Of a stretch of 64,000 nt of DNA, positions 10,379 through 60,200 are shown piece by piece. Under the pieces are notes generated by a model. That model saw only the letters and a program-made list of their open reading frames with translations. It did not search any database and had not been told where the DNA came from. The position numbers and the translations under genes were made by a program. Each line of letters begins with the position of its first letter. Within the stretch, counting starts at the first letter, position 1. Source of the stretch: Takakia lepidozioides (lineage: Eukaryota; Plantae; Bryophyta); contig CM060734.1 in the NCBI GenBank assembly GCA_030704615.1, positions 40,362,001 to 40,426,000 of the forward strand, given 5' to 3'.

Positions 10379-10901
10379 TGTGTGTGGATTGTTCGTGGCG
10401 TTCTGTCTGGACGTTATTTGTCCTGTGTCCCATAAGTGAAAGGGGGATATTTTTCCCCGTCCTCAAGGGCCTGAATTGTGGGCTGTCGCTCCCAGGTTTC
10501 CCTTGGAAAATAAAAAATAAAAAATGGTTCTTTCTGGAAAATTAAATGACTCTTCACACATGGCCGGAAAATCATGAAAAATAGCAAAGAGGGCTTTCCT
10601 CGGACAATGATTGGATCTGTTATACTCAATAAATTCATCGGAAAAAAAAAAATTTTGGTTCTTTTTGGAAAATAAAATGACTATACAGTATGTGCTCACC
10701 GACACAATCCAATATCTATATATATATAGACACCCTGAAGGGAACGTAAATTATGGTGTCTCTTCACCACAAGGGCTATTGCCTTTGAGCTGAAAGGTGG
10801 ACACCACCAGACCGTGGTTTGAACCCACAACCACATCCAACGTGATATGTGCCCACTACATGCTGGTTGTCGACATGGTCCACACTATGACTATTCACGT
10901 A

Positions 10902-29580: not shown

Positions 29581-29842
29581 GAAAAGAGTTCCAAAGCATC
29601 TTCTCCAAGCCCATGTTGGGTAAATGCAGCGGTCATTGCATTCTATGAGACCACATTTCGTTGTGGCATTTACTCCGCACTCGAGCACGCGATGCCCCTG
29701 CGCTGCAAGACAATTTGGGCAGTCCGGGCAGATATAATTTTTTTGACAACGACGATGACGTGTCTACGAGTGGCGACGAAACGTGGCGATGATGACGTGG
29801 CACTATGGCACCCTATTCCTGCTCTAAACTATCTTGCTAGAA

Positions 29843-30900
29843 CTAGGGCTTCGCGTTGCTCCACACTACTAGCGACGACTTCTGAGAAGGACGTCCGGAC
29901 GGATGGGCCATATTCGAGGTTTATGATAGAGACCAGTTTTGATTGGGGGGTGGGTGGGTGGGTGTGGAGGAGTTGGAGGGGTTCTCCATGGGTCGTCCTG
30001 GTATAACAAGTAGATTTGGACTATGATGTATCTGTATTTATTGATTATCCGTTGTGAGGATGTATTGGGACAAAATAGAGATAATTGAAAACTTTTTGAA
30101 GGAGAAGAAGGATGGTCTTTATAAAATATGGGGGCCCTTACATGGATATTTGGTTTGAAATGTTTACAGGTGTCTGATTTAAGCGCTACCAAGCTAACTT
30201 ATGCTTTTGCTCCAGTTGTCGTCGTTCGACTCTGTGTCCTCCGGTGCTTTGGCCAACAATTTGACCCCTTTTAGTTGGAATGAAAGTCCGTGTTTTTTGT
30301 GACAAAAATTCATCCAATATTGGATGTTGCACTTCACGGCATCTCCCTTGAACGTATGGATTCTCCATTCATTTTTTGGCCATTTTCACTAAGGACTTCG
30401 ATTGTATTATATACTTCGTTGTCATTTGTTTTTAGCCGTTTATTTGTACTAGCCGTCGAGCTAGAGTTGTTCGTGTTAGTTTTTTGGAGGTTTCTCGTAA
30501 AGCTCATATTGTTTCCCCAATCCACGTCATATTTCCCCCGATCCACGTCATATCCTCGCCTCTCCTCCTCCAGTAATCGGACCATTCCGTAATTCTATTT
30601 GCATAGTCGAACAAGAAATGGCTATCTTCTATCAATATTGAGAATTGTGCGTCCTTGGATTCTTCGACAAAGGTCACAAATCTGTAGTTCCCGGTTTTGC
30701 CAAGGTTGGGAAATTTTGCAATACCTACGAAAATGACTATTTCTTCAAGTTCCGAAGGGTCATTCCACAAGGCGCTATGGAAGTTTGAATTGTAAGGTAG
30801 TCACTCCCATGTGTTTCCCACCTTTAGGGCATGATGGTCATTGGACGTGAAATTGTCGTATATGGTGTCCGTTATGTCTTGGTGGGTAGAGAGAGAGAAG
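29843..30900 (-). mobile_element. Helitron-type SSB element, copy 2 (decayed, internally deleted)
   Basis: Same 3' end (..CAACGCGAAGCCCTAG|T at 29843). ORF fragments 30504-30770 and 30334-30585 are homologous to the 244-aa ORF. Confidence 0.8.
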
Positions 30901-33900: not shown

Positions 33901-34589
33901 TCTGTTGCCTGTAGATGACACTACAACATATATTTTCAATTTCAACAAGTGCCCCTCAACTACTACACAGGAAATGTTGGCTGAATGAAAGCTCCATTAA
34001 CTGATATAAGAAGTGTCTTCTAAATAAGTGATTTCTTTCTAGCTTGGACTAAATTTGACAGTTGCTAAGACGGAGTTCAGCTATAGAATTTTTAGCCCTT
34101 GTGTTTATACTGGTGGTGGTTGGGGTCATCCCGTAAGTCAGTTGCAGGTATGAACTTATTTTCCCATAGCTTGCCATAAGTGGACAGAGTCCCCACACTG
34201 ACCAAGCTGACGCTGGTAAGAAAAGCTCGAGCTTCTTCTCAACCTTGAATAAAATAGGCTAACAAAAGAATTACTACGCGGGACAACCATCAGCATGAGT
34301 TCGACAGTAAATTGTATAATGACTGAGCAGTAACCCACTTTAGAGGAGGGATTATCATATGCTCAGGAGTTCACCAAGTTGGGCAACAAAGAGGGCCTAT
34401 GTGGCCATGTTTGTCAGGAAAGGTTCTCATGTGTCTGTAATTATGTTGTTCCTGCAACCCCTACCTAGTTATTTAATAGCGAGTATTTGTATATGAGACT
34501 GCTAGTATATTCTGAGCCAATGACCAGCTCACTTGCACACTGACCACCTGCAAGACACTCATGATGTTCCAAAGTTGTTTGGATTGCAG

Positions 34590-35814
34590 CATATATACAA
34601 ACAACCATGTCAACGTCGGAAATAATCGACACCAAAGACAATGTAACAAATCAAGAAATTCAAGAAATAACCCACCAAGACATAACAGATGCGATATAGG
34701 ACAGTTTCACATCCAATGATCATCGTGCCCTAAAGGTCAGGAACACATGGAAGCGCTTGCCGTACAATTCAAACTTCCATAGCGCCTTATTGAACGTCCT
34801 TCGGACCGTGAGGAAATAGTAATTTTTGTAGGTATTTTGAAATTCCCCTACCTTGGCAAAACCGGGAATTACAAATGCGTGACCTTCGCCAAAGAATTCA
34901 AGGAGGCAAAATTTTCAATATTGATTGAAGACAACCATTTCTTATTTGATTGCGCAAATAAGATTACAGAATGGTCGGATTACTCGAGAAGGAGAGGCGA
35001 AGATATGTCATGGATGGGAGGAAATAACATGAGCTTTACGAAAAAGATCCAAAAATCTATCGCGATCAACTTTGGCTCAACATCTAGTAACCATAAATGG
35101 CAAAAAATAAATGACAACGAAATATATAGTACATTAGAAGTGCCGAATGAAAATGGACAACAAATGGATGAAGATTCCGTACATTCAAGGGATCTCGTTG
35201 CAGTGAAGTGCAACATCAAATATTGGATGAATTTCTGTCACAAAAAACACGGACTTTCGTTCCAACTCAAAGGGTCAAATTGTTGACCAAGGGACACATA
35301 ATCAAAAGATGACAAATGGAGCAAAAGCATAGTTTGGTAGCGCAGAGATCAGACACATGTAAACCTTTGAAACCAAATATCAATGTAAATACCACCATCT
35401 TTATCAAGACCATTCTTTTCTCGTCTCCAAAAGGTCTACAATTCCCTCTATTTTGTCCTAATACATGCTCACAACGGATGGTCAATAAATATTGTTTTAT
35501 CATAATCCAAATCTACTTGTTGTATCAAGACGACCCACATTTTATGTCTTTCGATGGATATTTATGATAAATCTTTTCCAATGAGGTCTCCTGTTGCATC
35601 TGCTTTCTGTTTTACAACATAGAGAGCATAAGGTCCATGGAAAACCCCTCCAACTAAAGACTATATGCAGCTCCTCTCCTCTGTTCCTCCTCCCCCGCCC
35701 CCCACGCAAATCAGAACTGCATGAGCGAGATTTTGGTAGGCTACATGATGCGTAGTCTCTCTCATAAACCTTGAGTATAGCCCATCTGTCCGGCGGAGCA
35801 ACGCAAAGCCCTAG
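34590..35814 (+). mobile_element. Helitron-type SSB element, copy 3 (opposite orientation, decayed)
   Basis: ATG context ACAAACAACCATGTCAAC at 34607; ORF fragment 34837-35286 homologous; ends GGAGCAACGCAAAGCCCTAG|T at 35814. Confidence 0.8.
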
Positions 35815-39228: not shown

Positions 39229-39471
39229 AACACGATGCGGTTTGCTATAGTGATGCTTTACTAAAATTTCAAGATAATTACTTTCTGTAGAGGAATTACG
39301 AGATTACGGGGGGAATCATTCGTAATAGTAAGGTTTCCCCACCTGGTTTCAAACTATGTCCTTATTGTAGTTTATGTAAGCAGCATAAGAAGGCAGAGAT
39401 CCCGGAATGTTTTTGGACTCAGAAGAAGGCGCGGGAGATGGATGAGCCTCCCTATTCTCAGTTAACAAAAA

Positions 39472-42400
39472 GTGGAGATGCTAGCTCTGGCGATAGCGCA
39501 GGAGGAGCAGATTCAACTATTGTCTGAACAAGAAGAAACGTCAAGAACACTTGAATTGACTGTTGCAAGAAATCAAGGAGATCATCTTATATTGTCAATT
39601 AAGAAAAAGGGGTTAAAGAGTATGAGGGAATCTCCCGTAACCGCCGAACATAAGGCTAAAGCCAGATCTGATCGATTGGCAGTCAGGATAGCACGACGAG
39701 CATTATTAGCCGCACAGGCAACTGCAGCGGCACCACCTATCGTATCCCCTATTGCAGTCCTTGCACCACCTATTGTACCACCTATTGTACTAATACCAAT
39801 GGCAGCAGTACCAATTGCGGCTGCTCTCCAATCAATTCCAGTAGTGGTGAATGTGGGAACGCCTAACGATAGAACTGTCAATGTATCGCCCCTGCCACAG
39901 TTTACGGGGTTGCAAGGGTCAGATCCTGACCGCCATTTGGCTCAATTTATGACAGCTTGTATTGCTAATAATGCCAAGACGGAATTCTGTTGGTTGACAA
40001 TGTTCCCTGCCACTTTGCGGGACTTAGCATTTCAGTGGTATGATCGACAACAGCATGGAGCATTTCCTGATTGGAACACTTTCCTAACACAGTTTCGACC
40101 CTTGGGATTTACCGATCGTCTACGGGAGCAACTGACAAAACTCCATATGGTGAAAGGCGAGTCGGTCGACTCATTTGCAGGCCGCCTAGAGGATATTCTT
40201 CGGCGATGGAATAATCATAATATTCCTAACCATATGCAGATGGGCCTATTTGTAGAAGGGTTGGCTCCAGCAGAACTGAAACGTTTTGTTAAAGAAGGTA
40301 TTCCTGCTGATTTACAGGCAGCAATTAATCAGGCTAAGTTATGGGAGACTATTAATATCACTACTTATTCAGTTGGGCCCACGACAATGTTTGATACTGA
40401 TTCCTGGGCCCCACAAGCATCGTCAGCTCCAGTGACTATGTCTCCTTCTTCAAATCAGTCTACTGTAGGAATGTATGCCCCTGTATCAGCTGGTGTAGTA
40501 GTTGACCCACAAGAAGGACAGATTGCTGCATTGACTAAGAAAATGGAGGAACTCTCCGTGCAATTAGCTTCTAAACGCGAAGGGAGACCAAAGCCAAATA
40601 ATCAACGACCCAATATGTGGTGTTCTAATTGTCAGGTTCATGGACATCTTGTTAATGAGTGCCCAGTGGGCCCAGTGACCAATCCCATTAATGGAGCTAC
40701 TGTTAAATGTGGTTATTGTGGTAAAACAGGGCATGTGATATTACAATGTTGGCATTTTTAATCGGCTATGGGTCTAACTCCAATAAAGAATAAATCAAGG
40801 ACGGGTTGGGATGTCAATCAAATCGGGTCGACTCCACCATCTGCCAACCAGCATGTGGCTGCTCAATGGTCTGACCAACCTCCCCAGACTCAGCAACCCT
40901 GGAGACCAACTTGAGGACCCCAGAGCCCAGTCGGCTAATCAGCCTACTCGACAGCAAGTGTGGAGGATACCACCTCAGGGAGCTTATGGTCAAACCTATG
41001 GGGGCGGAGAAGGCCAACAGCAGCAGATGTATCCACAACAGACCAATGCTCCTTATCGGCCACCGGCTCGACGATTGAGGAATGGTCAATATCCGATTTG
41101 CTATCGTTGTCATGAGATGGGACATATTGCCAGCGAATGCCCTAATCCGAAAGCCCCGGTTGATTATATCCCACTGTCTGGGCATTGTGGAGGTCAGGGA
41201 CATACTGCTGAACAATGTGAGAGTCCATACCCCCAAAATCCCATCCATCAGCAAACTTCATCAATCCCTACACTTCCTGGTTCAAGACCAGTACCACCAA
41301 CTGCAAGGCCATCACATTATTTTGGAAATACTAATGCCAATCGAGTTGTGAACCGAGTAACAATGCAAGAATGTGTGAGTGATATGAATTTGGCTGATAA
41401 GATAGCCACCTTGAAAGGCAAAGACAAATGGAAACAGCCGATACCCCTTTGCAATCTTATTATTTTGATTGCCAATGGACCCTATCGTGGAAAACTTTGC
41501 CTTAAAAACCCCCGATAGCATGAATTCCAAGCCAATTGAGGAGGTACAACGATCTTTGCCCATTATGCCCGGTATTCATCCGATACCAACGATGATATCG
41601 CCTAGTTTGGTTGTCCATCCACCTTCCACTATCGTGCACTCTATCGACCCGGATCCTGTCATCGCAGTTACGATACCCCAATCCAGAACAGAGCCAGTCC
41701 AGCGGAGAAATAGAGGGAGGTATACTGGTCCGAAATGGGCAATGGCAAGATAGGACACCCCAAGGGGTCTCGACGGAGAAGGGTCATGGCACTGACTAAG
41801 GGCTTGGTTCATTATGATATACTTAAAGACCTGGACACATTGCAACCTGCTATTTCTTTGCGGCAGCTGTCGGCTATCGCACCTCAATGCCAAGCTTCTT
41901 TGCAGTCATCTCTAGTGCGGAAACAAGCAACGAATAACGACATCCATGAAGTGAGTATATCCACACTCAATCCGGATCCAGGTGCCCCCGTCCTTGATGT
42001 GACAATAGATGGCGTTGTTATTACTGGAGTTCAAATTGACGGTGGTTCTAGTGTCAATCTAATGAGTTCCGACACAATGGAGGAGTTTGGACTTGGTGGT
42101 TTACAGAACACTCGATTGGTGTTACGGATGGCCGATCAAAGCCGTGTCAAACCAATGGGCGTCCTGACTGCCGTCCCAACTATAATTGTTACTATTGAGT
42201 ATTCCATTGATTATGTTGTCTTCCGACTAAATGTCTCGGCCTATTCTTACCCCATCTTATTATGACGACCATGGTTGTTCCAATCTAAAGCTAAAAATGA
42301 TTGGGGGAAAGGCACTTTGACTCTGGGAAAAGGAGAACAAAAGGTGGTGTTGCAAATGTACCCAGTAGCATATCATCGGGAGACACAGGAGATAGAATCT

Positions 42401-42492
42401 GAGTTTACCTCTGAAGCTGACGAGAGGACCAGTGACACCGATAGTGATCTTCAAGTCCTACCATTGTCACCTAAACATACACAGAGCCGGCG
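39472..42492 (+). pseudogene. Gypsy gag and aspartic protease (frameshifted)
   Basis: Retrotrans_gag-like LPQFTGLQGSDPDRHL..FPATLRDLAFQWY. CCHC knuckles CSNCQVHGHLVNEC, CGYCGKTGHVILQC, CYRCHEMGHIASEC and a degenerate fourth. Protease VQIDGGSSVNLM. Confidence 0.88.
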
Positions 42493-42615
42493 CAGGGATG
42501 CCTCGGCGTGAGCCTGGTCACGTGAGCGCGTGAGCGCGTGAGCGCGACTGCGCTCACGCCACGTCACCTTGCGCAAATGCCACGTCACGGGGCTCAGTCC
42601 ACGTCATCACACGTG
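42493..42615 (+). repeat. Left TIR and subterminal GCGTGAGC / GCCACGTCA repeats
   Basis: Several GCGTGAGC, GCTCACGC and (G)CCACGTCA motifs, mirrored at the right end. Confidence 0.85.
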
Positions 42616-43527
42616 GAGGCCGAGTCACCACGCACCCAGAAAGAAGTGGAGTGTATTCCCGCGGATTGGCACCCTTTACCGCGGAAACAAGCTGGACGAC
42701 ATAATAAAAGGCATTGAATAAATGATGGATGAATGTACAGTTGGATGATAAACAGATGGATGAGTTTGAAAAATCTATGTAGATGGATGAATGACGGATG
42801 GATAAGAGTAAAATGGATGAATGTATAATGGATGTTGAGCAATGACAAAAATTCATGACAGGAAGATGCATGACCAAATCTTTTGACGAATGCACAAAGT
42901 ATATGAAATGAGTGTGGAAGGTTTGTGGGGTGGATTAAAGAGTACAGAGGATGAATGTACAATGGATGTTGTACAAAGGAAGCTTTCATGAATGGAGCAC
43001 GCATGAATACAGTGTAGATGAATGCACAATGGATATGAGAAGAGTCAGGAAGGTTTGTGAGATGGATTCATACATATAGCAATTTAAACGAAAGTTGATT
43101 CTGTGATTATTATTTGTTCTAAAGGAACAACTACGGTAGAGTAAGGGGATTCAACGTTTTCCAGATAATATGAAAATGAATATTAAAAGAATACAGTTCA
43201 GTCTGACTCAGAGTCAGTACAATGTATCCCCTCTTCCTCTGCATCTAAGTCTAAGTATTTTAGAACACCGGATCCACGCTGGATACACCTACGGCTGGCC
43301 ACTAAAAAGTCAGGGGATAGGGACTCGGACGCGTGAAGTGCCATTGCTTCGGCATAAACAGGGAGCAGAAAATTGGAAAGGGGGCTGTCGAAAACAGACT
43401 CGCCAGAAATGACTGTATCTCCTGAAGATCCACCGCTGGCTTTCCTGAAAGACAGCCTGAAAAAGTTATTACTGTAACTTTGATGTTATCGAGAAATTGA
43501 GTATGACTCCCAAAGAGGGTTTAGCAC

Positions 43528-46500
43528 TTACTCACATGAAAAGTCGTTGTCGACCTGCTTATCTTCGGGATCGTCATCATTTCGAATATGAATCCGATCA
43601 GTCTGTGTGCCTGAAGTGGAGCCAGACAAAAGGGGGAGGAGCACTGTGTTGTAGAGGTCAGAATCACCCTCCATACCAAAAAGGCTTCTTCCGCCTGCCT
43701 TGCATGCGTGGTAAGTTGCTCCTGCACCAGACAGGAGAACATAAACAGTTTGGAGGAGGGGATTTAAGCAGATGAAACTGTTGAAAGGAAACCAATTCGG
43801 AAGGGAGAAAACGAACCTGTGGACACAGAAAGATCGACCACCCGTGCAGAGCGGTGGCTGCATGACTCCAGCAGTATTTGCATGAATGCTGGTGACTTTT
43901 CCTTTGCACCTCTCCAGGGAGTGCCATCTGGTCTCTTCAGAGTCTGACTGGACTGCATGAAGTTGTACAAAATGTCATCGACATGGGGCTCATAGGGGGG
44001 GTTGACGAAACAACCCTGGTCAGAAATCTCAAAGCTGCGGATGGAGGATGGTGTCTTTGATGTGCGAATCCTCCGCAGGCAGATCGCCTCGAACATCCTC
44101 GTCTGCCAAAGATAGCAGGTTAGTGTGGTAAACACAATCTAAAGTGGAAGTGTGTACATCGGCTATTCAGAACTCTGACACCAAAAAACCATGAATCGTT
44201 GATGATCGGTGTCGATCATAAAACATTCTACTAGAGTGGAGCTGCAGAGAAAATTGAAACTCATGATCAAAGCATAAGCAGAAGGCAGACGGCATACCAG
44301 CTGACCAGGGAAACCCCCTTTCACAAGGTAGAGGCTGTTCACACAATTCCATGTGCGCAAAACTTCAAACCCTGAAGACTTGAGGTATGATGCCAATGCC
44401 CGACGACTATCATTGTCACATGACTGAAAAAGCAGAAGTGTCCCTGCATCAGAGAGGAAATTGTTACAGAACCCGAATACCCAACTCCAGTAGTTGTCCT
44501 CGAATTTGTTCCACCCTGGCGTCTTGCCCTTTGGAAGAACTTCTGGCACAGCCTGGCCATCCGGGATGTCGAGAATGACAATGTCGGCCGCATAAGTTTT
44601 CTGCACACCGCACACGAAGGTGGGACCTGTGCTCACCTGCAACAGACATGTTTTTTATAAGAACGATGGCAAGAATGTTTTCAAAGAACGAGACTGAAAT
44701 ACTGCCAACGAAACATTCAGAGAAAAAGGAAAGAAACTGGAATTCTCACCAGATTGAGGAATGAGATTATATTGTCCCAGGTAGGGGATGGCACCCCAGT
44801 GTATCCTCTCTTTCGACTCTGCATCATCGAAAGCCAACCCTCATTAACAATTTTCATCTCTCCTGCTGAATCAGAACGGGAAGGGTGTGGCTTGGCATCG
44901 AACACGCACTGAAGAGTGCGGGTATATCTTCCAGCACTAAAGTCCTGCCCACTCTCCATCTCCTTTTCATTCTCCTTCCCCTTGTCCTTTTCCTTCTCTT
45001 TGGACTTGTCTTTGTCCTTTGGCTTTGCTGGTGAGATGGCTATGACATCAACAGCCTTGTCTTTTGGTTTGCGGCCCGCCTTCTTTCCCTTCTGCGGCGT
45101 TCCCTGAGCATCAGGCTCCTTGGCAGCCAAGGTTGCTATGTTTCGTTGATACTCTTCGTCAGTCAAAGGCGCCAGCATCTCAGCGTTATTGTTCAAGTAT
45201 TTCATATGCTGTTCTTGAAAGGTCGTGTGCTCAGGTGGGCAGTCAAGGTACCACCCACAGTCTCTGAAGTGAGAAGGACTCCAGTCCTTCAATATCCCTG
45301 CAGTATACATGGTTGGATCGTTTGCAGGGTCCGACCACATGTCAAGATAGTCGGGAATTCCGCTCAGGTGATTTCCTTCCATAAGCACATATTTCGTGTA
45401 CCTGAAAAAAGGAGATGAATCCCAACCCACAAAAGCGCTCAGTGAGTAAGATGCAAGTAGAACAGAAAGAATAAAACATGGATTGAAATGGCTCTGACAA
45501 CTGCTCCAAGGACCTTTCAGGACCACACTACTGCTCCAGATATGAATGTCGTCAACGCCATTCAGAACATTCCATTCCATGACACTGTAAATACATCCTA
45601 ATCCAGGTGAATGCAAATAAGCGATTAGAAATGACACAGACATAGAAGTGAATGTCGTCAACGACATTCAAGAATGAAGCCAAATTATTACTGAAATGAA
45701 GCAAAATCACAGGATGGAAATAAAAAAATTGAGTAAGGAACCATCCAGGAAAACTCAATGCACATTCATAACGAACCTATCACTGAGGACCTCACAACAT
45801 CACTGTATGTGAATGGCGTCAACGCCATTCACAAAAATACAAAAAAGAAACCAATTACTTAGCTCCCCAATCCATGAAAATTGAATTTGTCGTTTTTGAA
45901 TAATACAGACACAGCTGTGAATGTCGTCAACGACATTCACTTTGGATTTCTTAAAACAGAGCTTATCAAGCCTCCATATTCATCGCAAGAGGAAAAAACA
46001 ATGCAGAACAACTGAATGTCTGCATTGACATTCAGCAAAATGAAGTGATCAACCCTCATTGTAACCTCTATGGACATTACAAAAATTTAAATAACCTTGA
46101 GGACCACACAACAACTCCGTATGTGAATGTCGTCAACGCCATTCAAGGACATTATCAATTCTAATCAGGGACAATATAATTGCACCCTTAGATCCTAACC
46201 AGGTGAATTCATATACTCGCTTAAGAATGACTCAGACAAAGAAGTGAATGTCGTCAACGACATTCAATCTGGATCTAAGATTGCAATCCATATGAAGCCA
46301 CAATTTTTCCCAAAAAAACAGTAGAGTTTCAAGTATGACATTTCACCTGTACACAACTCGCATCATGGCCCACTCTCCTCCAACCTGACTGTCAAAGTCG
46401 TTGGACCGTAAAATGTTACCATCTTTGGAGAACTCCCGGAAAAAACAGTATCTCCAGGTGAGACCTCTCCACTTCCTTATGTATGCCTCCAATGACATTT

Positions 46501-48835
46501 GGGGAGGGGAAACAATCGCAATGTTCAGGTCCTTCAAAGTCTGATCCAGCACAATGACGGCGCGCTTTTCGAGCTGCAAATAGTATATTTGTCAGAATTG
46601 CAAAAAAGAAACACATCACATACTTGAAGAGAAGAAACAGCATGTTCGAATACACACCTGACTCCAAAATGTAGCCTTGTGGAGCCAGTTATCAAACACC
46701 AAATCACTGATTCCTTCCACCTTTGTGCCAGGCTGTATGGTGCTCTTTGGGAACTGATTCAAGTCCTTTACTGTTTGATCTGAGTTCCATATCTCCAGCC
46801 ACCTTATTTTTGTTTGTGGGTCGACCATCGATATGGCCAGCCGGTGCAATTTCTCCTGCTGCATCTCCGGATGCACATGCTTGTCATAGTGTGTTTTGAT
46901 CTGCTGAAGGAACTCAGGACCAAGTCCAGGATCTACTATTCTAAGCTGCTTTCCGAAGGCTGACATCAATTTGGTTCTTCGCATCTCAAACTCCTTCTTT
47001 ATTGCAGCTTCCACACCCTTTGATGTCCTTAGTTCCTCTGGTGTAGTGCGGTAATATTCGGATTTTCCCTTCTCAGCTGCCTCTGCCAGTTCTTGCTGCA
47101 TTCATTCAAGTAGTGATTAGCTCCGAAGGGACTCTAAACATGTATTCGAAAAGTAAACAGATTACAGACTCGGGCTTACCGCATACATGTACTCCAGAAA
47201 CGCCTCTCGTGTCAAAGAATACCAAGTGCCTGCAGCTCTTCCTGTTTCGCACTTCTTGATGATATTGGGTGGTAGTACTGTCCGAAAATCATCCAGCTTC
47301 ATCAGACCAATCCTCTGAATTCGGAATAGTGTGTGAACCAAGCTTGTTGTCACATGCGATTTCTCTGTCGATCTGCAAAAACATTGAAAACATTGCATTC
47401 CTTAACACTGTTTTTTGAGGATCAACAAGACACTACAGAGGGAATCAAATCTCCTGGATGACTTACTTGTTCACGTCGTGCATAGCTGTAAGAAGCCTAG
47501 CGATGTCGTTTCCTGGATCCAAAACCATTGCCTCCACAGCAACATGCTTGTCTTTGTCTTTCGAATGGTGTTTCTGAATGTATCCCATCCATGCCAGCAA
47601 TCGGTGGTTGCCGTCCCAGACGTAGAACATGTGGTTGCAAAATTGCTGGGTGTTCTTTCCCATCATGAGGCCCAGCTCGAACTCCTCATTGGCATCTTTC
47701 CAGCACTCATCCCAGTTATCACTGATCTCTGGAGAAACTAATGTGCTTTTCCCATTTATATCCGTCAGTGACACATAAAAAACTTGTGCACCAAGTCTAT
47801 ATCCATGCACAAAATCACTCTCCAATTTTGTTATGTCATGGGAAAGAGGTGGACGCACAACAGGCATTGATATCATCCGGCACAGAGGTATGTCCAGACG
47901 CCCTCCAGATACGAGCATGTCCCTTATAACCTCCTGAGAGTTTACCTTCTGGAATGACATGAGTTCTTTCACCTTGTCAAGGTAGTGCACTTCGGATTCA
48001 TCTGCTTCATCTGTATTCTCTGAGCTTTTTGCGGACTCGTCCCCATCTCCAGATCCTTTCCCCTCTGATCCTGTAGGCTTCGACCTCACAGTTTTCTGCA
48101 CGATGCCATTCAGTTCTGACTAAGTGATTTGCAAATAGTGAATGGCGGTAACGACAATCACTCTGTATCAAGGAAACTCACCATGAATGGTGTGAAAGAA
48201 TTCAGCACAATCTACACATGCAAAGCCGAGACTGCCGTATTCAAAACAAAAGTGAGAGCGATAGCGAACGGCGTTAACGACAATCACAAAAGATAACAAC
48301 CTGCCGGATCGGTGTTGTGTAATGACATATATGTGCAACTGATTGGCGGCAACGACATTCAGTGTAGTTTAGGGAGAATAGTAAGTGCAGACTCTCTCTT
48401 CAAACACATAGGTACATAAATCTCATGAGCAGAATCGAATGGCGTTAACGACGCTCGCGATTCAGTAGTTCCTGCTAAAGAATGGAAGAGGAAGGACTCC
48501 TTGAAAGGCAATCACACAGACTATATGATAAAACTTACTGGCACCTTCTTAGGTTTTGAAATTTGATCCCCTTCTGCAGCTTTCCTCTTCCCTCTCACAT
48601 CTGCTGGAGTTTCTGTCTGCGCAAGGGTTTCTTGACCTTCTTCAGGTTCGGCGTTCCGCGTGCTTCCACCTTCTTCAGTGTCCCTGCGATTCATCTCTGC
48701 CTCCACAGGCTGGCGCACTCTTATCGCCGACTGTGTCGCAGCCGCTGCCTCAGTCTCCGTCTGCTCTTGTGAATCAGTCTCCGCGTTCACCTGCTGCCTT
48801 GGCCCTGTGTTCTCCAACAAACGACGCCTCGTCAT
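43528..48835 (-). CDS. ParB/Srx-domain plus beta-class amino-DNA-methyltransferase fusion protein, 9 exons, ~1084 aa
   Basis: Exons 48835-48539, 48095-47467, 47372-47180, 47095-46658, 46573-46347, 45401-44750, 44636-44298, 44102-43817 and 43721-43528. All are GT-AG with compatible phases, total 3255 nt. ParB motif FYVWDGNHRLLAW. MTase motif IV position ADIVILDIPDG, then KEKSPAFMQILLE and motif I VVDLSVSTGATYHACKAGGRSLFGMEGD. Confidence 0.8.
45543..46266. repeat. Array of seven 22-bp palindromes in intron 5 of the ParB-MTase gene
   Basis: TGAATG(T/G)CGTCAACG(A/C)CATTCA at 45543, 45649, 45810, 45918, 46124 and 46245, plus variant TGAATGTCTGCATTGACATTCA at 46013. Confidence 0.92.
48139..48457. 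repeat. Four degenerate copies of the same palindrome in intron 1
   Basis: TGAATGGCGGTAACGACAATCA (48139), CGAACGGCGTTAACGACAATCA (48265), TGATTGGCGGCAACGACATTCA (48340), CGAATGGCGTTAACGACGCTCG (48436). Confidence 0.8.
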
Positions 48836-49690
48836 TTTCTCTCTTGCTCTGCGTCTCTCTCTAAGGGAAGTAAAATAAAGAGACTTTCTTCTCTTTCGTA
48901 TTCTAGAAGGAACCCTCTCCAGCTTGACTACCACTCTCCCTCTAAGCGCGAAAAGTAGAAAAACGCAGTGACTCCCGATTTCTTGCGGGATTGCCTGTGT
49001 TCTTGCGTGTCTCTAGAAGCATCGGATTCCCTCCCGCGTGACCGTTACACATAGTCGTTTCGTTATTAGTGCACATGCCAGCAATTGGTGTACAGCTGTT
49101 CGTATTCAGTTATGGATGTCTGACGTGTGCCGCCCAAAACAAAACGGCGTGTTCTAAATTATAACTGGTTCAATATTTAAAAAGAACAGCGAATCCCAGA
49201 AATTGATGCGCAGTCTTAAACAAATAAATATAAATGAACGAGAGTTTGATGACAAATTTTGGAATATCATACACGGTCATCCTTGTTATCCAAACCCCAC
49301 ATTCGTTGCACATTTGGAACTTTCCAGGTGCGCATGATCATTGGTAGTAGTATATAGATACATTTACTTAATCTGCAATCCCATTCTCGGATCCTGTGGC
49401 ATGCTTCCAGGAAGTCGGCTTTGTTATTGGGTTTATTGATGAGGTTCTGATTAACGGTTTAACAGTTGCCGACACTGCCCCTATGGATTCTCTGACCACT
49501 GGGCCCACAAGAAAAGTAATTAAAATGGACGGCTGCATATCTGGAATGAATAACAGAATATGCACAGTCGTTATCTGAGCTTCCTCCGCCATATGCTCTG
49601 CTCATTCTTCAACTGTGTTCTGGAGACAGCAGTAAACCGATTTACACTAGATCTGCGATAGCAAGGTACAAACATACTCGAGGAAGGAAG

Positions 49691-52600
49691 ATGGCTTCCT
49701 CTGAAGCGGAGTTCTTCTCAGACGACAAACCAGTGCCGTTCTCCCAGGAAGTCCTTGACAATGGATTTGCAATTGTTCTGGAACATGTCTTGGCTACCCG
49801 TTTTCAGCTGCAGAATGGCTCCATCTTTTTGGAGAAAGAGGTTTACGATCTGAAAGGGAAGTTGGTGAAATATTCTTTCCAAAACCGTGATGAGACGGCT
49901 CATATCAGCCAGTGGAGAGTGCGTCCTGGTCGATACAGAGTACTTGGAGAGCCTCGGCGAAAGTCCCTTGGGTCATATGTGACGCCCGGGACTGCTGCTT
50001 CGGTCGTTGAAGACAAGAGGGAGGTGGTGGTGAAAAAAGAACAGACTTCCTCCACTCCAATCGTTGAGCTTTCGGATTCTTCCGATGATGACATAAGTGA
50101 AATTCCAAATCCAGTCCTTCCTACTGTGGTTGCAGAAGCTGATGAAGAAGAGATTTGTAGTGTCATTCCAAAATTGCGGGCGATGGGAGGAATGGCTGGA
50201 TTCAAAAGTGAGTTGCGGGGAATTGATTGGGAATCTTTGAAGCAGGTGCCTGTGAAGTTCTTGCCGGAGACTTTTGATGGCGATATCCTATTCGAGCTGC
50301 CTCCTCCTCCGCGAGTTGGAGGTGTAACAATCATGATGCATGGAATGGACAAGAAACACGACGGGCACCCGTGGTGCAGAACAAAAACATCCAATATTCA
50401 GAATGATGACAAGCTTGTTTTCAGGAGGACAGTTTGCAATGGACACCTTAGGTGTGATAATTTGAATTGCAGACACTTTCTTCAGTCTGGAGTTCATAAT
50501 CAAAGCGAATGGGAGGGTCTGGCGGAGAATCCATTTCAGCCTGGGACTGCCCCTCCACCGGCAAACACTTTCGTCTGCAAATTCTGCAAACTTGTGCCAT
50601 CCTGCTTGGCGCTCTGCGGAGCAAGAATGTACTATGTTGTCCACCGTTTGAATACAATGACGAGAGCTTGTGTGCATTTTGGATTCCATAACCATCCTGT
50701 CTCGAAGGGGGATTACAGGGAGAGTGTTGAGACAGTATCGAGGTTGATCAAACAGGAGTTCGGGAGAAACCCATCCGCAACAACATCTGCAATTGCTCTT
50801 GGCGCAAGCAAGTCCTTCTTGGAAAGCCATATTTTGAGTGAAGGAGATTCTGTGGGGACTAAACTTGACGGTGCAGCATTGGACCTGGTCATGGATCATT
50901 TCTCCACTTTAAGTTCACCTAACATTCGGCATCAGATCAATGCATTGAGAATGGGCTCTGGGATCAGAGGCTACATAGACAATATTTTGGAATTGAAACG
51001 ACTGAGCAAGTACGATTACATCCAGGACAATGTATTCCCAGGTCAAGGTGCCATCAAAGTTTTTCTTTTCAAAATGTCGACTGTTGGGGAGGGCAGTGGG
51101 GTTAGCCTCGTGAAGCGGATGCAGAAGACTGGGGACTTGCAGAACTGTTTTCTTATGTTTGATCATGTGAAACGAGTGAAGGATTGGACGACAATGGCTT
51201 GTCATGTCTACGATCCAGTGTACCAACGAGTTATGACAATTGCAGTTTGTGACATGCAATCCGAGGATACGGAATCCCAGAAGCTCATGTGGAATTCCCT
51301 GATACGTGTCATGGGCTGCCATGGGCTGCCATCTCCAAATTTCGCAGGTTTCATGGCGGATAGTGCTCAAGCAAATTTCAATGCTATTCGTATTGTCTTC
51401 GGATCGGGCGACCCAAAAGTGCCTATGCCAGGAAGAGAGCGTACATGTCTATTCCATTGGACACAATCTCTGGAAAAACATACAAAGTCGGACATCAAAC
51501 CAGAGATGCAGACTCAGCACCGTAAATTGTGCAAAGAGTACAAAGATGCTAGAACAATGAAGGAGGCGGACACTTTGTTCCAGACAATTCGTGCCTGGTG
51601 GTTCTCTTCTGGAGCTGCATCACTTGAGAGTATGAGAGCATTGGAAGATTGGCTGGCGTTTTGGCACTTCCGGTATAGACAGTGGGGAGCAGCCATGACA
51701 ATGGTACGAGGCTTCTATTTCATGCTTTATTCATACATTTGCTTTCCATATTTTTGACTCATTGCTTTCTTTATGTTGTTTCTGTGCACTATTCTGAAGT
51801 GTGGTTATCCTCTTTGCAGAACATGTCCATTGAGGAAATGGCAGACATGCCATCTTGCAATTTGGCAGAAACTGTGCACAATGCATGGTTGCAGCAGTCT
51901 GGGAAACGAGGTCGGGATTTGTATGTGGCAACAACAGATGATTTGATACGTGCCTTGCAACAACAAACCCGATACCGTGATTTCTTACGAGGTGGGGTTG
52001 GTGGCAAGGGTCCGGACAAATCGGAGTTGATGTTGCGTGCTGCAAACAGATCTGGGGATCCAATCAAGATAGCACGGGCGGTGAGCATGTATGCCCAGGG
52101 AACGCCACTTGTTTCTAGAGTTCCACATCTTGAAGGGGAGGAGAGATTCGGCTCCTGTAAGAGGAAATTGAACACTCCACCTGGTTCGGATTCAGATTCC
52201 CACAGGGCAGACCGTGATAACTTCTCGAAGCCTCGTGTTCCCCTGCATGACAGCTCCGTGTCCGGAACCTCCATTGTGGAGGAACCTCCAACACGACGGC
52301 AAGCTCCAGCATCAAACCGTGCCACTGAAATGGTGCAGGAGAGAAACAACCCCCTTGATGTGCTTGAGTCCGCATGCCCCGACCACGTTTGGCACATAGA
52401 ACGCACAAGTGTCGGGTCTCGTGTGAAATGTACAGCGATCAGGGCAACTAATTTCGAGAAGTGCACTTCATCTATATCCAGAGGTGGTGCCCGAACTCCT
52501 GCTCCGACTTTCACGGGCTTGATGCGTCCATACGGTCAACCAGAAGCCAAGAACCACAAGTTCTGGTTCTGCGCAGATGATTGTGCCAGATGTGTGCATG

Positions 52601-53204
52601 GAACTGTGCGTCCTTCCGTAGTGATGAAGCCATCTCCTCCAACCGTTTGGCCCGTGAAGGTGGGAACACATCTCAGCTTTCAGGAGATTGAAATGCTGGA
52701 GGAGGCAGGTTTTTCCCTTGCGAGACAACCCCAACTCCATGCATGTGCTACTACTCCTGCGTCCTCCCGGGTCCCCCGGCAAATCCTGACTTGTGGCCAA
52801 CCAAACGAGATGGAAAGCTCGTTCGGCGTTTCCCTCCAACCGCTGAACACTTTGGCAAAGTGGAGTCCGCAAGAATGCTCCAAGCTCGTGTCGGAAGCAC
52901 CACGGAAGTACCCGATCCAGGATATGGTCGGGTATTCACAATCATCACTTCCACATCTGCTGTTCATGACAGGACCTACGACATCACGGTTTCCAATTTC
53001 CCCAATTGCACATGTCCTGATTTTGTGAATATGCTATCAACCAGTTTGGGCAAGAGAGGTAAATTCATACCCTGCAAACATTTGTATTTCATATTTTTGA
53101 GGAGGATGGTTTGCGATCCCAAACGTGACAACTTCATTCACCAGGCCACTATGAGTTTCAACGAGGTCGATACTCTTTTGCAGCGGGATACAACACATGG
53201 GTAG
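49691..53204 (+). CDS. MULE-type DDE transposase with N-terminal GCM-like Zn domain and C-terminal SWIM finger; one intron and one apparent frameshift
   Basis: DGHPW..CNGHLRC..CKFC..CVHFGFHNHP (GCM/WRKY-like). FLMFDHVK (D1), FMADSAQA (D2), CLFH, CNLAETVH (E). SWIM CTCPDF..PCKH. In-frame intron 51704-51819; frameshift near 52760-52780. Confidence 0.85.
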
Positions 53205-53654
53205 CATGAACTATGTAATGTGGTATGTGGATGACCATGATTTGAAATGTGTAATTCACATCAATTCGTCGGCTGTGCAATGATATGGCCTCCAACTATA
53301 CGGAGTGAGGTCTGAGTGACAACTTTTAGGTAGTGCACATTTGTCATTGCACCGTTCGAAGTCTACATGTCTTGCTGTCGCTATGCACTACAATCATCTT
53401 TTGAAGATGATCATAACTCTCATTGTTATTTGAGGAGGGAGGAAGTCTTCTCGTGGCAGCCTTTATGGCGCACACTTTGTGAGGATATTTTGTCGTCTTC
53501 GTAATTGTAAAAGTGAAACAAACATTTGTAATTGCACAATGTTGGATGCTGCAATTGTAGGCCTCAACACTCGTCTTGATTCTATTTAGGCAAGATTCCC
53601 TGCATTAATTCCACGGTCATAGGACCATCCACGGTTATAGGCGGCGCATGTTAA

Positions 53655-53854
53655 TGCTGACGTGGCAGTTGACGGACAGTGCCACGTCATCATTTACCGC
53701 CACATCAGCATGCTGACATGACGCTCACGCCACGTCAGCATGTGTGCAGGCTCACGCCACGTCAGCTGGCGTGAGCGTACGCTCACGCCACGTCACTCCT
53801 GCGTGAGCGTACGCTCGCGCGCTCACGTGCAACGCTCACGCCATTGCGTCGTTG
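53655..53854 (-). repeat. Right TIR and subterminal GCCACGTCA / GCTCACGC repeats
   Basis: Repeated GCTCACGCCACGTCA and GCGTGAGCGTACGCTC motifs ending at CGTTG|TSD. Confidence 0.85.
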
Positions 53855-53863
53855 GAGCCGGCG

Positions 53864-56742
53864 GATCTACCACTGTGCTAATCTAGGAGAGTACCCCTGG
53901 CATGGTGATTTTGATAGTGACTCTGATGATGCTATCTTACGATGGGAGGGAGCCCGATCTTCTTATATGGTGCAGCATGAAGCTGAGTGGGAAGAGGCCA
54001 CCACGTCGGAAGATATCGCGTGGTATGATTCGGCTGATGATAACCGTGCTCCATTGATAAAGAAGGACCCTTATCAAACCTTGAATTTGAATACAGTTGC
54101 TGAGCCCAATGACATTATAATTTCTGCGGCAATCCCATCAAATGAATTGTCTATGTGGAAGGAGTTTTTCCAGAAACATCGTACGGCTTTTGCATGGACC
54201 TATACTGATCTTCGGGGTGTGCCCCCAGAAATTTTCCAGCATCGCATTATATTGGAGGAAGGAGCAATGCCAGTACGGCAACGCCAACATCGATTGAATC
54301 CTAAATATTCTCTGTTGGTTAAAGAAGAATTGGACAAAATTGTTAGCTGTTGGATTCATTTATCCTGTACCTTATAGCAATTGGGTATCGCCTATAGTGG
54401 TCGTGCCCATGAAACAATCGGGCAAAGTACGAATCTGTCAAGATTTCCGGAAACTTAATGCTGTGACTCGAAATGATTATTTTCCATTACCTTTCACTGA
54501 TGATACTATTCTGGATGCAGTAGCGGGCCATGAGTGTTATTCTTTCCTCGATGGTTTTTCTTGTTATAATCAGATCACGATCGCAGAAGAGGATCGGCCT
54601 AAGACTACTTTTACCACCGCTTGGGTCACTTATGCCTATAAAGTCATGCCCTTCAGACTTTGCAATGCTTCTGCTACGTTTCAACGAGTAATGACTGCCG
54701 CTTTTCAGGATTACTTGCGCCTATTTATGGAGATCTTCTTGGATGATTTTTGTGTCTATAGCAGCAAAGCAACACATGCTGAGATGTTGAAGTTGTGCTT
54801 TCAAAAATGTAAGGAGTATGGAATCTCTCTGAATGCCAGAAAATGTCAATTTCTGGTTACCAAGGGGAAGCTTTTAGGCCATATTGTATCAATTCGAGGG
54901 ATATCAACTGACCCCACCAAGATTGAGATTATTGTCCAATTACCTACCCCCACAACGGTGACAGAGGTGCGTGTCTTTCTGGGCCATGTGGGGTACTATC
55001 GCCGTTTTATCCGTCGATATGCTGAGATTACCCTACCATTGACGCAATTATTGAAACACGATGCCGAGCAACAGTGGATAAGGGAATGTCAGCATTCTTT
55101 TCAAGAATTAAAAGGGCGATTAATAAAGGTGCCTATCTTGATTTCCCCCGATTGGACTAAGGAGTTTCAGGTCTATGTGGATGCTTCAAACTATGCTATT
55201 GGTAGCGTTTTGAGTCAGAAGGATGAAAAGTCGTTTGATCATCCGATATATTTTGCGAATCGTCAATTGGCTGCGGCGGAGAAAAAATATACTACCACTG
55301 AACGAGAAGGTTTGGGCATGATTTATTCGGTTCAGAAGTATTGCCATTATTTATTGGGTTATCCATTTGTTTTTCATGTTGATCATGATGCACTAAAATA
55401 TCTCATTAATAAACCTCAGCTGAGTGGCAGAGTGGCCCGGTGGGTTATTTTATTGCAAGAATTTACTTTTAAAATTGTGGTTCGCCCCGGGCGCAAGCAT
55501 GCCAATGCTGATCATTTAAGTCGTCTATCGAAGGAAGTCGGCGAAGAGCTGATAGATGATTCTCTCCCAGATGCTGCCCTTTTTGTGGTTGATGTGATGA
55601 CAGGAGAGTATGCTCTCATCTTTAATTACCTATCGTTACAACAATTTCCAGAGGATTATACTGAGAAGCAAAAGCGTCGGCTGGTAGAGAAGACTGTGCC
55701 TTATACGATTATTGGCGACACATTATACAAGCTAGGGAATGATGGTGTATTGCGCCGTTGCATCTTGGAAGCTGAGGATCCAACAATACTTGAGGGGTGC
55801 CATGCCGATTCTTGTGGGGGTCATTTTGCAGGGGATGCCACCGGACGGAAGGTATTATTGGCAGGTTATTGGTGGCCTACCCTATGTAAAGATGTTTTTG
55901 CTTATGTGCGTCGTTGTGATGCATGCCAACGTATTGGCAGACCTGCGCGATCGAGTTCTATGCCCCTGGTTCCCATCCTTGCACAAGCACCTTTTGAGAA
56001 GTGGGGTATCGATTTTGTTGGACCTATCGCCCCTGCCTCTCGCAATGGTCAGAAACGATATATTCTTGTTGCAACTGAATATGTCACTAAGTGGGCTGAA
56101 GCTATGGCCTCTCGCACCGATACGGCCAAGGTTGTGGCGCAGTTTTTGTATGAGAATATCATTACTCGATTTGGTTGTCCTCGAGAGCTTGTGAGCGACC
56201 GTGGTACACATTTTTTAAATTCTATTATTGAGCAGATGACTGCCAAATATGTCATTAAACATCGGAAGACTACTCCTTATCACCCACGGGCTACTGGTCA
56301 GACGGAGAAGACCAATGGGTTGCTCTGTGGTATCCTAACAAAGACAATTTCTGGTACTGGCAGCGATTGGGATACTAAATTATTTTCTACATTATGGGCC
56401 TATCGGACTGCATTTAAAGTTACTACCGGATTTACTCCCTTCCAGTTGATTTATGGACAAGAGGCAATATTGCCTATCGAGCTTGAAATTCCTTCCCTAC
56501 GCATAGCTATCGAGGAACGTTTAGGCGATGTTCCATCCCTATCGGCTTGCCTGTTGCAATTGGTTAAGATGGATGAACTTCGTCGGCAGGCGTTACAAAA
56601 CATTGAAGTCACCCAATTGCGGCGGAAGGATTATTATGATAGCTGCCTTAAACCCAAGATCTTTAAAGCTCAAGTTTTGGTCCTCCTTTATGATAGCCGT
56701 TTTCAAAAATTTCCTGGTAAATTGAAGATGAGGTGGCTCGGA
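53864..56742 (+). pseudogene. Gypsy pol: RT - RNase H - integrase
   Basis: WVSPIVVV, RICQDFRKLN, FLDGFSCYNQI, FLDDF, VDASNYAIGSVLSQ, HADSCGGH..CDAC, WGIDFVGP, VSDRGTHF, GQTEKTN. Frameshift near 54340; ends abruptly at KLKMRWLG. Confidence 0.93.
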
Positions 56743-57295
56743 GAGCAAAAACAAGAAGGGGATCACTTCTTGAGGAGGGCGACTTGTTCAGGAGAGGAGG
56801 AGACGTAACGGAAAGTGGAAAACAATGAAGTGGAGATGATGACTTGAATGTGGCTTAGTTCATGCAAGTTGTAAGATTATACAGTATGATAGAATAGAGA
56901 CACCATGGCATAGGCATGATACATGATTAATCTTAATCCGATACTGAATCGGTACAAACATACTATGTAGAGAAACACGAGAGAAGCTGTGGAATGAATG
57001 CATGATTAGATACTGAAGCAATCTGATGCTTCAGTATACACGGTAAGGTAAATTGATAACATGAAGGCAGGAAGGAATACAAATAGGAAGCACAACCATG
57101 ATTCACTAGCTGCAGGTCATGACTGATTGTTCTGAGCGGGCTGAGTGCTTAGAGATATCCAACTCTTCTATCTTGGAGTTTCCACCTCAGATAGCGAAGG
57201 GATGGGTGAGTAAAAGCCGCTCGACAGCAAGGGATCGCCATTTTTGGTAGCCAATTGTATAGAGCCATTTGGAAAAGCTTCCACCACCCGATAGC

Positions 57296-60200
57296 TGTTC
57301 TAATCACCTAACTAACTAACCGTCACCCCTGAAGTAACACGTTCCCTCTGCAGATGTTGTTCCCACATAGTCGTTCCCTATCAATGATAACTGTTCCCCA
57401 TGTACTGTGACAGCTGTGAAGCTGTGCCGAGCTGTGACTGGCTGTGCGAAGCTGTGTCGGGCTATGTGAAGCTGTGTCGGGCTGTGATAGACTGTGACAG
57501 GCTGTGTAACCCCCCTAAAGCCTGCTCCTGCCAGGCTCCTGTTGGTCTCAGTCTGCGCAAAAATTAAGGGTACCCCACAGAACCCATAAAAGCGTCCAAG
57601 TCCCAAGCAACCCTCTAACATTACCCCTCCCCCTCTCAAAAAGTCGTGTCCTCACAGTTTACTGTTTGGGATCAGCAAACCTTTGTGAGCGAGCACCCTT
57701 CTGACGGTGAGAGTCTCGTGAAGGACTCCGTGTGCGAGCCCGAGTCCTGTCACTGGCTGATGGAGATGATTGAGCACTACCTGGAAATGTCTGACCCTCC
57801 TTTGGCTGATAACGAGGTAACATCTCAGGCATATGAGATCCCCGTCGTTTCTTCTCTGCCATCTGAAGTGCATAGTCCTCTGCCATCTCAAAAGAGTCCT
57901 CTGAAGAAACAGTAGTATCAGAATCCTCGTCCCCCCTTAGGTGTTTTAACGGCCGAACTTTAAGTGGAATCCTACGTGGCATACAATGTGGGCCCACCAT
58001 GTCTGGAAGTTTAAACTGTACAACTTGTTGTAAGCGCTTGCAAGCAAAATTAGTGAACGCCCTAAACTCCTTATCCGTATAGGTGAGAGGTGTGTCAATG
58101 ACTTTGGAACAGTGTAAATATTTCCAGGCTTCATGTCCCTTAAAGAAAATATCCTCAGGGCCAAATTTTGTGTTGTCAAATTGTTCCAAGCCGAATTAAA
58201 CCATGAACGAAGTTGGGAATCCTTCTGCATCATAACTTTTGCATCATATAGGTACATATGAGGTGGCACTGAAGGTAAGACCCAATGATCCCCACTGGAA
58301 TAACTCAGAAATTGTGATTGCATCTTCTGCTGCTCAATGTGATAACGTGCCATAAAACAAGCAACATAGTATAATCCACAGCCCATGACAATACTAGATA
58401 CCTCCTTGGTCTTGGTATAGATGTACCCATGTACAACCTGGAAGGCAATTAATTCCTTCAGCATGGTACCTGCCTCAGACCAGTACCTTGCAAAGTGATG
58501 ATCCTCAATGGGTCGATTGTTCGGAAGAACCTTAGTCCGAGTTGCCATTGGCAACCAAATGCGCATGATCTGGTAGTAATGTGCCAATGACTGCGGAGGA
58601 CTAAATTCCTTCCAAGCCAAATCCAGCACAATGGGAATTTGGTTGAATGGCATAATCATAGCCCAACTGTACTCCCGTGCAGCAGGAGTCCTAGGTGGGT
58701 TAAAAGCAGCATCCCCCCATACCTCAGGCTGTGGTTTGGCGGTAGTAGCAACAGGGTCAGCTACCTGCACATGCACCTGCTGTGGTATTGGTACCACTGG
58801 CCCTTCTACCACTGACATCTCCTACACCCCCTGCAAAGAAGACTGAAAAATTAGAGTCCTAGCATGTAAATAAGTAGCCATCAACTGCTCTTCAGGAACA
58901 AAGACTCTCTTGTCAATATTTGAACTCAGGTCTTGGTATAATTGTTGCTTATGTGCTTCATGCAACTGGTCCTGCTCGAGACCTGCTTCAATCAAATGTC
59001 CCTTAGCCAACTGCAAGGCAGCCTTTAAGGCCTCCAACTCTTGCTGTAACTCGAGATTGATCTCCGCATCTACCTTGTTAGCACACTCAGTGGCAATTCG
59101 AGTCTCAAACTCCTTTCAAAGCTGCCAATTGGATAGATGGAACATGGGATTTCACATAAGTGCCCAACAAAATTGAGTGGCCTGCTTATGGAACTCATAA
59201 GCATGGCCTGCTGGGGGTCATCATGGTGAACTTGCTGCTGTTCCCCCTGATCTTCCACAATGTGATGCTTCATCAACCATTCAGGCCATTGCCCCACCAG
59301 ATCCTCTTCCTGAACCACCTCATCCTCCACAGGTGCTACAGTGTCCTTATATTCTACCCCTGGTACCTCCGTCACAGGTGTGGGTATTACATGCACAGCA
59401 GGGATTTCCCTGGACAAACTCTGCACCTCTAGAACCACTGATTCCCTTACCAAGCCAAAGTTTTCATAGAGAAGGTCACCCTTCTCAATTTCTGCCACGA
59501 CTTGCTCTGTAGTGGGAATGTCCAACCTTTCTCCGTCCAGAGCAATTGGGGGTGGTGTCACAGCATGTTCTAGCTGTGGAACCTCTGAGATAACTGAGTC
59601 AACTGGTTGTGATGGTTGTGATACCGAAGTGACTTTTTCTTCCCTCTCCGAAGGCCGTGCTTCCAATAATAACAGCCATCTGTGCTGCTGTGCCCCATCC
59701 TGCACAAGAGCTTGGGAAACATCATCTTGCGGTTTCCGTGAAGCTAGTGGATCCGCCACTACAGTCATACCCCGCTTCTGTCTCTTAGACTGGTGTTGCC
59801 CTGCCAGTCCACCCTCACTATGTGAAGAGTCATGCTCTTCAATTGCAGTGGTTACTGCCTCAAATACTCCCATCTCCTTACGTCCCCAAGTATCAAGTAT
59901 GCAAGAGTCAAGAATGATTTGGGCAATGACTGGACCAGACACAATGATCGGAAACTTAGCAGCAGTGCCCTGTAACCTCTTCATCTCTTCCACCATACCA
60001 TTGTACATTAATTCTGCCCATGCTACATCCTCTCCCCTCAAAGCTTTCAGGATCTCCTCTGTGAATGACCTGCTCAAATATTGTTGGTTCTGTTTCATGG
60101 CAAATAGAACGTTCAATATTTGGCCAACTTCTCTGAGCCCTGAGTACTCGGCTTTGGTACAAGCGTAGCCTTGAGTCTTAAAGAAACTCCCTTCTTGGAA

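Follow-up and report, generated by a model that had tools for sequence, protein, structure and literature searches.

The seven 22-bp palindromes found in an intron of a MULE-like element of Takakia lepidozioides are probably conserved, subfamily-specific docking sites for a dimer of the predicted ParB-fold protein that the same accessory gene encodes, acting in cis. We favour a dimeric binder encoded by this gene because long dyads under selection, non-coding placement, change from subfamily to subfamily and growth by duplication all fit one. The element lies in the window, by which we mean the whole 64,000-nucleotide stretch analysed (contig CM060734.1, positions 40,362,001 to 40,426,000 of the forward strand); positions below are those of the window.

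The element and its surroundings

The element carries a transposase gene and an accessory gene arranged head-to-head on opposite strands, and it splits a retrotransposon:

42493..53854 (no strand): whole element, 11,362 bp, with degenerate terminal inverted repeats
42484..42492 (+): left target-site duplication, 9 bp
53855..53863 (+): right target-site duplication, 9 bp, identical to the left one
49692..53204 (+): MULE-like transposase with a C-terminal SWIM finger (SWIM E 0.0017; D..D..CxxH..E read by eye)
43198..48835 (-): accessory gene, about ten exons predicted from splice signals and homology; read support for intron 5 only, last exon junction provisional
39466-42483 and 53864-56808: Ty3-type retrotransposon (gag, zinc knuckles, RT, RNase H, integrase), split by the element

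The MULE setting assumed in the preliminary description is retained under the label MULE-like, a class suggested by the 9-bp target duplication, the SWIM-bearing transposase and a catalytic pattern judged by eye against the consensus; Pfam gave no MULE match on the element's ORFs. Two contigs of run X3 contain an empty-site-like joint (42482>53854), and we take the element to be multi-copy because short contigs of the DNA runs fall on it in tens of thousands and contain many variant letters. Subterminal GCGTGAGC repeats (four at the left end, six at the right) are unlike the intron motif, which is itself absent from the element's termini. Inside the left end, at 42700-43070, there are also degenerate GGATGAAT repeats and a 132-bp duplication.

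Elsewhere in the window a Helitron with Rep and PIF1 helicase pieces occupies about 17100-23700 (- strand); its CpG observed/expected ratio is 1.2, compared with 0.4-0.8 in the rest of the window, and a 72-bp tandem repeat lies in the same region near 23204-23586. A 1-kb repeat is present in three copies that are 77-79% alike (10901-11936, 29842-30887 and 34587-35537), one of which has a 274-aa frame with no Pfam match below E 0.05. The Pfam scan also recognised a PPR gene with an E motif. Long open frames of 552, 291 and 178 aa occupy 57659-60728 on the - strand, opposite to and downstream of the retrotransposon integrase, and the two of them that were scanned have no Pfam match.

The accessory gene and its protein

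As predicted, the accessory protein would begin with an acidic exon 1 and continue through a ParB/Srx domain, a helical region and a K/E-rich linker to a beta-class methyltransferase-like domain:

47467..48095 (-): exon 2, predicted ParB/Srx-fold nucleotide-binding domain with WDGNHR (GxxR-type)
46347..47372 (-): exons 3-5, helical region
45402..46346 (-): intron 5, 945 nt, GT..AG, holding the palindrome array; joint present in one run-X8 contig
43817..44636 (-): exons 7-8, methyltransferase-like domain; motif IV DIPD (non-canonical), motif I VVDLSVSTG

The gene had been called ParB-like in the preliminary description, and structural modelling supports the name. Pfam found no ParB and no methylase match on the window's single exons, and a single-sequence model of the window's own protein had a mean pLDDT of 34.8 and no usable fold, so the fold evidence is that of a Riccia homologue, P0203 (E 2e-22 to the exon-2 profile), whose model has a mean pLDDT of 67, higher over the domains. 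In a wide structural search with this model the first seven rows are all ParB/Srx-fold chains (Z 5.0-7.8), with KorB, PadC, ParB-N, SerK and Srx at the top, and in a second structural comparison the first 17 rows all belong to the ParB/Srx family. The match to 6sdk_B (Z 8.6, rmsd 2.6, 98 aligned) covers the ParB/Srx nucleotide-binding fold, and that to 7bm8 (Z 9.2, rmsd 7.7, 179/180 residues) reaches through the DNA-binding domain. The helical region, to about residue 535 of the homologue model, aligns with the DNA-binding domain of ParB, Noc and KorB, over 179-203 residues but at an rmsd of 7-9 A. No canonical helix-turn-helix was identified in the homologue and Pfam gave no HTH match there; Foldseek returned no match for the P0203 model at E<=0.001, and sequence searches of the PDB gave no meaningful match. 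GNHR is invariant in all 15 alignment rows, and of the 261 proteins collected, many of them fragments, 157 have [DE]GNHR. The helix before a conserved DP.LG.EFL stretch varies by subfamily, as judged from a few decayed rows.

By sequence comparison the accessory-protein family is large and reaches liverworts and ferns. The exon-2 profile matches 975 proteins at E<=0.001 in a library clustered at 50% identity, and among the ten clusters looked up the named members come from Riccia sorocarpa and two Adiantum species. A word search for longer exon-2 homologues found none among 618 candidates; the profile found them later, and the last search gave 23 long homologues, every one from R. sorocarpa. 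That species has over 20 annotated gene copies (P0223, P0240-P0261), some of them automatically named "trimethylguanosine synthase". Pattern and tblastn searches of virus and prokaryote collections returned no relative, which at such divergence is weak evidence.

The methyltransferase part of the earlier description also stands, in that the C-terminus appears to be of the N6/N4 type: Pfam N6_N4_Mtase matches Riccia homologues at E 9.4e-6 (P0221) and 5.2e-5, just under the curated cut-off, and nothing besides this methylase was found by Pfam on the full-length homologues. Motif IV precedes motif I in the domain. Beta-class DNA methyltransferases usually read 4-8 bp sites, and the canonical catalytic motif of the N4C/N6A enzymes of this class is (D/N/S)PP(Y/F/W). 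The corresponding residues are DIPD in the window, DIPE in the related insertion L001, DVP[S/R/G]-like in decayed relatives and a non-aromatic D[L/M]P[T/S] in 15 of the 16 long homologues that have the motif (20 scanned); one Adiantum homologue has an aromatic DVPF, and the catalytic motif of Marchantia DN4MT1 is given as TSPPY (Marchantia 4mC preprint). The domain is thus probably inactive, to judge from these motifs.

These observations bear on what the palindromes are for. The preliminary description had left open that they are methylation sites, and we consider it unlikely that an active N4-cytosine or N6-adenine methyltransferase domain uses them as its substrate and marks the element's own DNA there. 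The lack of an aromatic residue in the catalytic motif, both in the window and in nearly all the long homologues, as well as in L001 and the decayed relatives, weakens this branch, and 22-bp sites are long for such an enzyme; the Pfam matches, the aromatic Adiantum variant, a CG-N4-CG core conserved in the sites and the proposal of methylation for an Ectocarpus protein (PMC12477816) speak for it. On sequence grounds, "binding sites" is the better supported term.

Palindromes in introns 5 and 1

The palindromes of the window form two clusters, both within the accessory gene:

45543..46266 (no strand): secondary cluster in intron 5, seven 22-bp palindromes in a triplicated 270-310 bp unit
48139..48457 (no strand): intron-1 cluster, four more diverged copies (48139, 48265, 48340 and 48436), both CpGs in all four

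The seven copies of the array start at 45543, 45649, 45810, 45918, 46013, 46124 and 46245, at the positions and with the spacing (106/161/108/95/111/121 bp) originally reported. Each is built of 10+2+10 bp with the half-site TGAATG[T/G]CGT. A degenerate pattern matches nine times in the window where 100 shuffles give an expectation of 0.01, and the intron palindromes are confirmed as a real, non-random feature. The reported placement inside an intron of the ParB-methyltransferase gene is likewise correct: exactly 945 nt are skipped in one contig of run X8, whose joint has CT..AC ends. X8 is probably an RNA run, a tool's guess, and the same joint (45402-46346) was looked for in the DNA runs X1 and X3 and is absent there.

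Two details of the preliminary description need amendment. The reported GTCAAC core flanked by CpGs is present in six of the seven copies, and the copy at 46013 has lost both the core and the two CpGs. Within the window the motif is indeed found in the element only, but four diverged copies in intron 1 had been overlooked; with these included, both CpGs are present in 10 of the 11 palindromes. A third point falls away: the copy at 45810 had been read as a symmetrical, compensatory change of both arms, and we reject this, since it differs by a single base from its paralogous copies at 45543 and 46124, which already have the right-arm variant.

The array is a triplication of a two-palindrome unit of 270-310 bp, with the arrangement A-B, A-B-C, A-B. 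Across the three duplicated units the palindromes are 95-100% identical and the 30 nt upstream of them 57-77%, in agreement with the earlier remark that palindromes are better kept than spacers. The same picture is seen among copies of the element: 25 places vary in the 724-bp array and none of them falls in the 154 bp of palindrome (P=0.0025), a count based on runs X1 and X3, which are one sample and possibly the window's own source. The palindromes are under selective constraint. None of the contrary patterns named in the preliminary description that could be looked for, such as palindromes no better conserved than spacers, was found.

Selection on the palindromes could in principle act on RNA. 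Hairpins in the pre-mRNA, serving splicing control, autoregulation or as a source of small RNAs, would suit the intronic position of every copy in the window and the copy at 46013, whose stem is kept while its centre has changed, and all 20 shuffles of the intron do fold less well than the intron itself (z -9), a score that is due to the palindromes themselves. We nevertheless regard this explanation as very improbable. Conservation is in the primary sequence, beyond pairing; the two arms vary independently of each other among the copies of the window, and arm mismatches are left unrepaired (one in two of the array copies, three to four in the intron-1 copies); several relatives are palindromic through the centre and hence have no loop; and Rfam has no match over the array, its one match, at chance level, being outside it.

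Palindromes in related insertions

A scan of metagenome contigs gave 181 confirmed loci, of which 80 were kept, representing 45 insertions (numbered L001 and so on). All have the same exon order, and in nine of the 80 loci a divergent transposase is within reach. The window's own motif has only five scattered matches in these loci, at 4-5 mismatches and in no cluster. A motif-blind search, on the other hand, finds dispersed clusters within the 2.5 kb that precede the ParB exon in 15 of the 28 insertions covered, compared with one of 132 other bins; the count drops to 14 of 28 when the upstream array of L065 is removed as a passenger, being common to an unrelated position in L043. With motif types that were defined by hand and scored with tolerance for decay, at least three typed sites are present in 24 of the 36 insertions that have at least 800 bp of upstream DNA and no typed cluster in the other 12, and far flanks (139,779 bp) contain 0-0.25 typed sites per 2.45 kb. 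In L012, the least decayed relative, the cluster lies between the acidic exon and the ParB exon, as judged by eye, like that of the window. Intron 1 is therefore the cluster position conserved throughout the family, and the seven-copy array of intron 5 is secondary.

The palindromes of the relatives are mostly 22 bp long with a 2-bp centre, and they differ in sequence; one group of types has the window's CG-N4-CG core with other outer arms. In old relatives the CpGs of the sites have decayed to TG/CA, which the decay-tolerant score allows for. Covariation of motif and protein, put forward in the preliminary description as a check, is seen: when nine motif groups are placed on the protein tree they require eight changes, the minimum possible, where shuffled labels require 16.7 on average and none of 200 shuffles is as low. 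This tree holds 24 labelled insertions and the window (the other 21 of the 45 have no typed cluster or no upstream DNA), and its labels were assigned manually on the basis of these very loci, with three groups as starred branches and one split. Because the array and the gene are linked in cis, descent accounts for the match between motif and tree. What this match shows is turnover by subfamily and not the identity of the binding protein, and it favours the accessory protein no more than the transposase.

For that reason we also considered that the transposase, rather than the accessory protein, binds the sites and regulates transcription of the element. Transposases acting as sequence-specific activators of their own copies have a precedent (10.64898/2026.08.24.746577), the transposase gene is linked to the array so that the tree pattern fits it equally, and the two interleaved motif types of some relatives, described below, could mean two binders. 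We judge it improbable all the same: the termini lack these sites and have a repeated motif of their own, every cluster found lies inside the accessory gene or a short way upstream of it, and the arrays reported from red algae stand beside a ParB-like gene (10.1101/2025.02.11.637652).

Extra clusters of each subfamily's own motif occur in three different introns. Five insertions of one clade have such a cluster in the intron that precedes the methylase exon, L048 has one in intron 4 and the window has one in intron 5. The cluster preceding the methylase exon (L004, at about 12583-12910, and the same place in L007, L034, L065 and L077) has a strict 51-bp period, about five helical turns. Two palindrome types are interleaved in steps of about 60-70 bp in L004, L007, L034, L060, L071 and L077, the clusters of this L004-L077 group lying 0.4-1.9 kb upstream of the ParB exon, and interleaved types are also seen in L025, L028, L057, L062 and L020. 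Such two-type clusters may reflect two binding domains or two proteins, and one binding domain does not easily account for them; no second accessory gene was recognised upstream in the relatives. An unrelated repeat of about 820 bp is found at varying places near the gene in L015, L019, L007, L038, L053, L057 and L062.

The relatives also bear on the idea that the palindromes are sites for host transcription factors, or that they arose neutrally, through tandem duplication or from a small repeat that had inserted, which seems to us quite improbable. Unit duplication did form the array, and passengers such as that of L065 do exist, but duplication leaves unexplained why the palindromes alone are fixed. 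Their position is kept while their sequence turns over by subfamily, unlike sites of host factors, and typed motifs are almost absent from the far flanks.

Comparison with known systems

The idea that a ParB-like protein docks on its own element is already in print for algal transposons, namely for red algal PAG3 and for an Ectocarpus gene. In Bostrychia, Plavaka elements have PAG3, a ParB-like accessory gene with adjoining inverted-repeat arrays, for which the analogy to parS was drawn (10.1101/2025.02.11.637652). Like the Takakia element these are eukaryotic DNA transposons that combine such a gene with such arrays, with self-binding put forward, there as here, as a hypothesis. They differ in being EnSpm/Plavaka elements of red algae, in that PAG3 joins its ParB domain to a 2OG-oxygenase and the methylase has a gene of its own, PAG2, where Takakia has one ParB-methyltransferase-like gene, and in that the arrays adjoin the gene instead of lying in its introns; the sections on PAG3 in that account contain no selection test and no motif turnover. 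In Ectocarpus, Sola1-1_Ec32 has a gene for a 1104-aa protein, ParB-like and with an N4/N6-methylase, on the strand opposite the Sola transposase, and the authors proposed that it binds and modifies its own element and may represent a new class of accessory proteins (PMC12477816). The domain combination and the opposite orientation to the transposase are those of the Takakia element; the host is a brown alga, the transposase is of the Sola type and the relevant passages mention no target array and do not take up whether the methylase is catalytically competent. Likened by description, the features in common with the algal ParB accessory genes are a ParB-like gene, a domain of DNA-modifying type and an inverted-repeat array. 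ParB-HTH methylase fusions have also been noted in chlorophytes and chytrids (Iyer 2016).

VANC of the Arabidopsis VANDAL MULEs, for which motif binding and demethylation have been demonstrated (PMC5735166; PMC10398659), is similar in other ways. It is a MULE accessory protein with family-specific motifs in introns and other non-coding parts, its motifs are gained by tandem duplication, and motif and protein diverge together. On the other hand its motifs, YAGTATTAY and AGTTGTCC, are of 8-9 bp and the Takakia sites are 22-bp palindromes, and the Takakia protein has a ParB fold by prediction.

The bacterial ParB-parS, Noc-NBS and KorB-OB systems (10.1101/2025.10.10.680097) resemble the element in the ParB/Srx GxxR domain, which in the Takakia protein is predicted to precede a helical region that may bind DNA, in the palindromic sites clustered close to the gene and, for KorB, in a use for gene control. 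Their sites are of 16 bp compared with 22 bp here, and the Takakia gene is eukaryotic and contains introns; its predicted protein has large helical insertions and the C-terminal methyltransferase-like domain in addition. The element carries no ParA partner, only the transposase and the accessory gene, and its ORFs have no Pfam ATPase match; canonical partition consists of ParA and segregation of a replicon, and the element here is a transposon in the nucleus, bounded by a target duplication. According to a 2025 survey, sulfiredoxin is the ParB-fold protein common in eukaryotes, and the nucleotide preference of ParB folds is unpredictable from sequence or models; the survey also notes that the fold can act simply as an ATP-binding module of enzymes, which counts against the docking reading.

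No account of such a system in land plants was found in the literature covered, which does not include Repbase, Iyer et al. 2011 or the majority of journals behind subscription. What is new here is the occurrence in land-plant MULEs, the intronic placement, the evidence of selection and the subfamily-specific turnover, and the comparative evidence is stronger than in the algal cases.

Proposed mechanism and significance

If the palindromes are docking sites for the accessory protein, its dimer would read two 10-bp half-sites around the CG-N4-CG core. By analogy with ParB and KorB, nucleotide bound at the DGNHR motif may lead to loading and spreading, and the methyltransferase domain, probably inactive, would contribute DNA contact and not a methyl mark. 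The net effect would be self-regulation, most likely, to go by VANC, an escape from host silencing by cytosine methylation, and new sites would arise by local tandem duplication. The fullest version of this scheme, a nucleotide-gated sliding clamp of the ParB type that uses private parS-like intron sites and subfamily codes and carries a dead methyltransferase against host methylation, is possible, though on the whole we doubt it.

The roughly nine motif classes matched to protein subfamilies mean that a test of cognate against non-cognate binding can be designed at once, and the protein-site pairs, if real, would be usable as orthogonal sequence-specific DNA-binding tools. Were the ParB domain still nucleotide-gated, a bacterial sliding-clamp mechanism would be at work on plant chromatin. 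The clamp reading, if true, would make this the first case of ParB-parS loading in the nucleus of a eukaryote, and also a second anti-silencing system of the VANC kind, evolved independently of the first.
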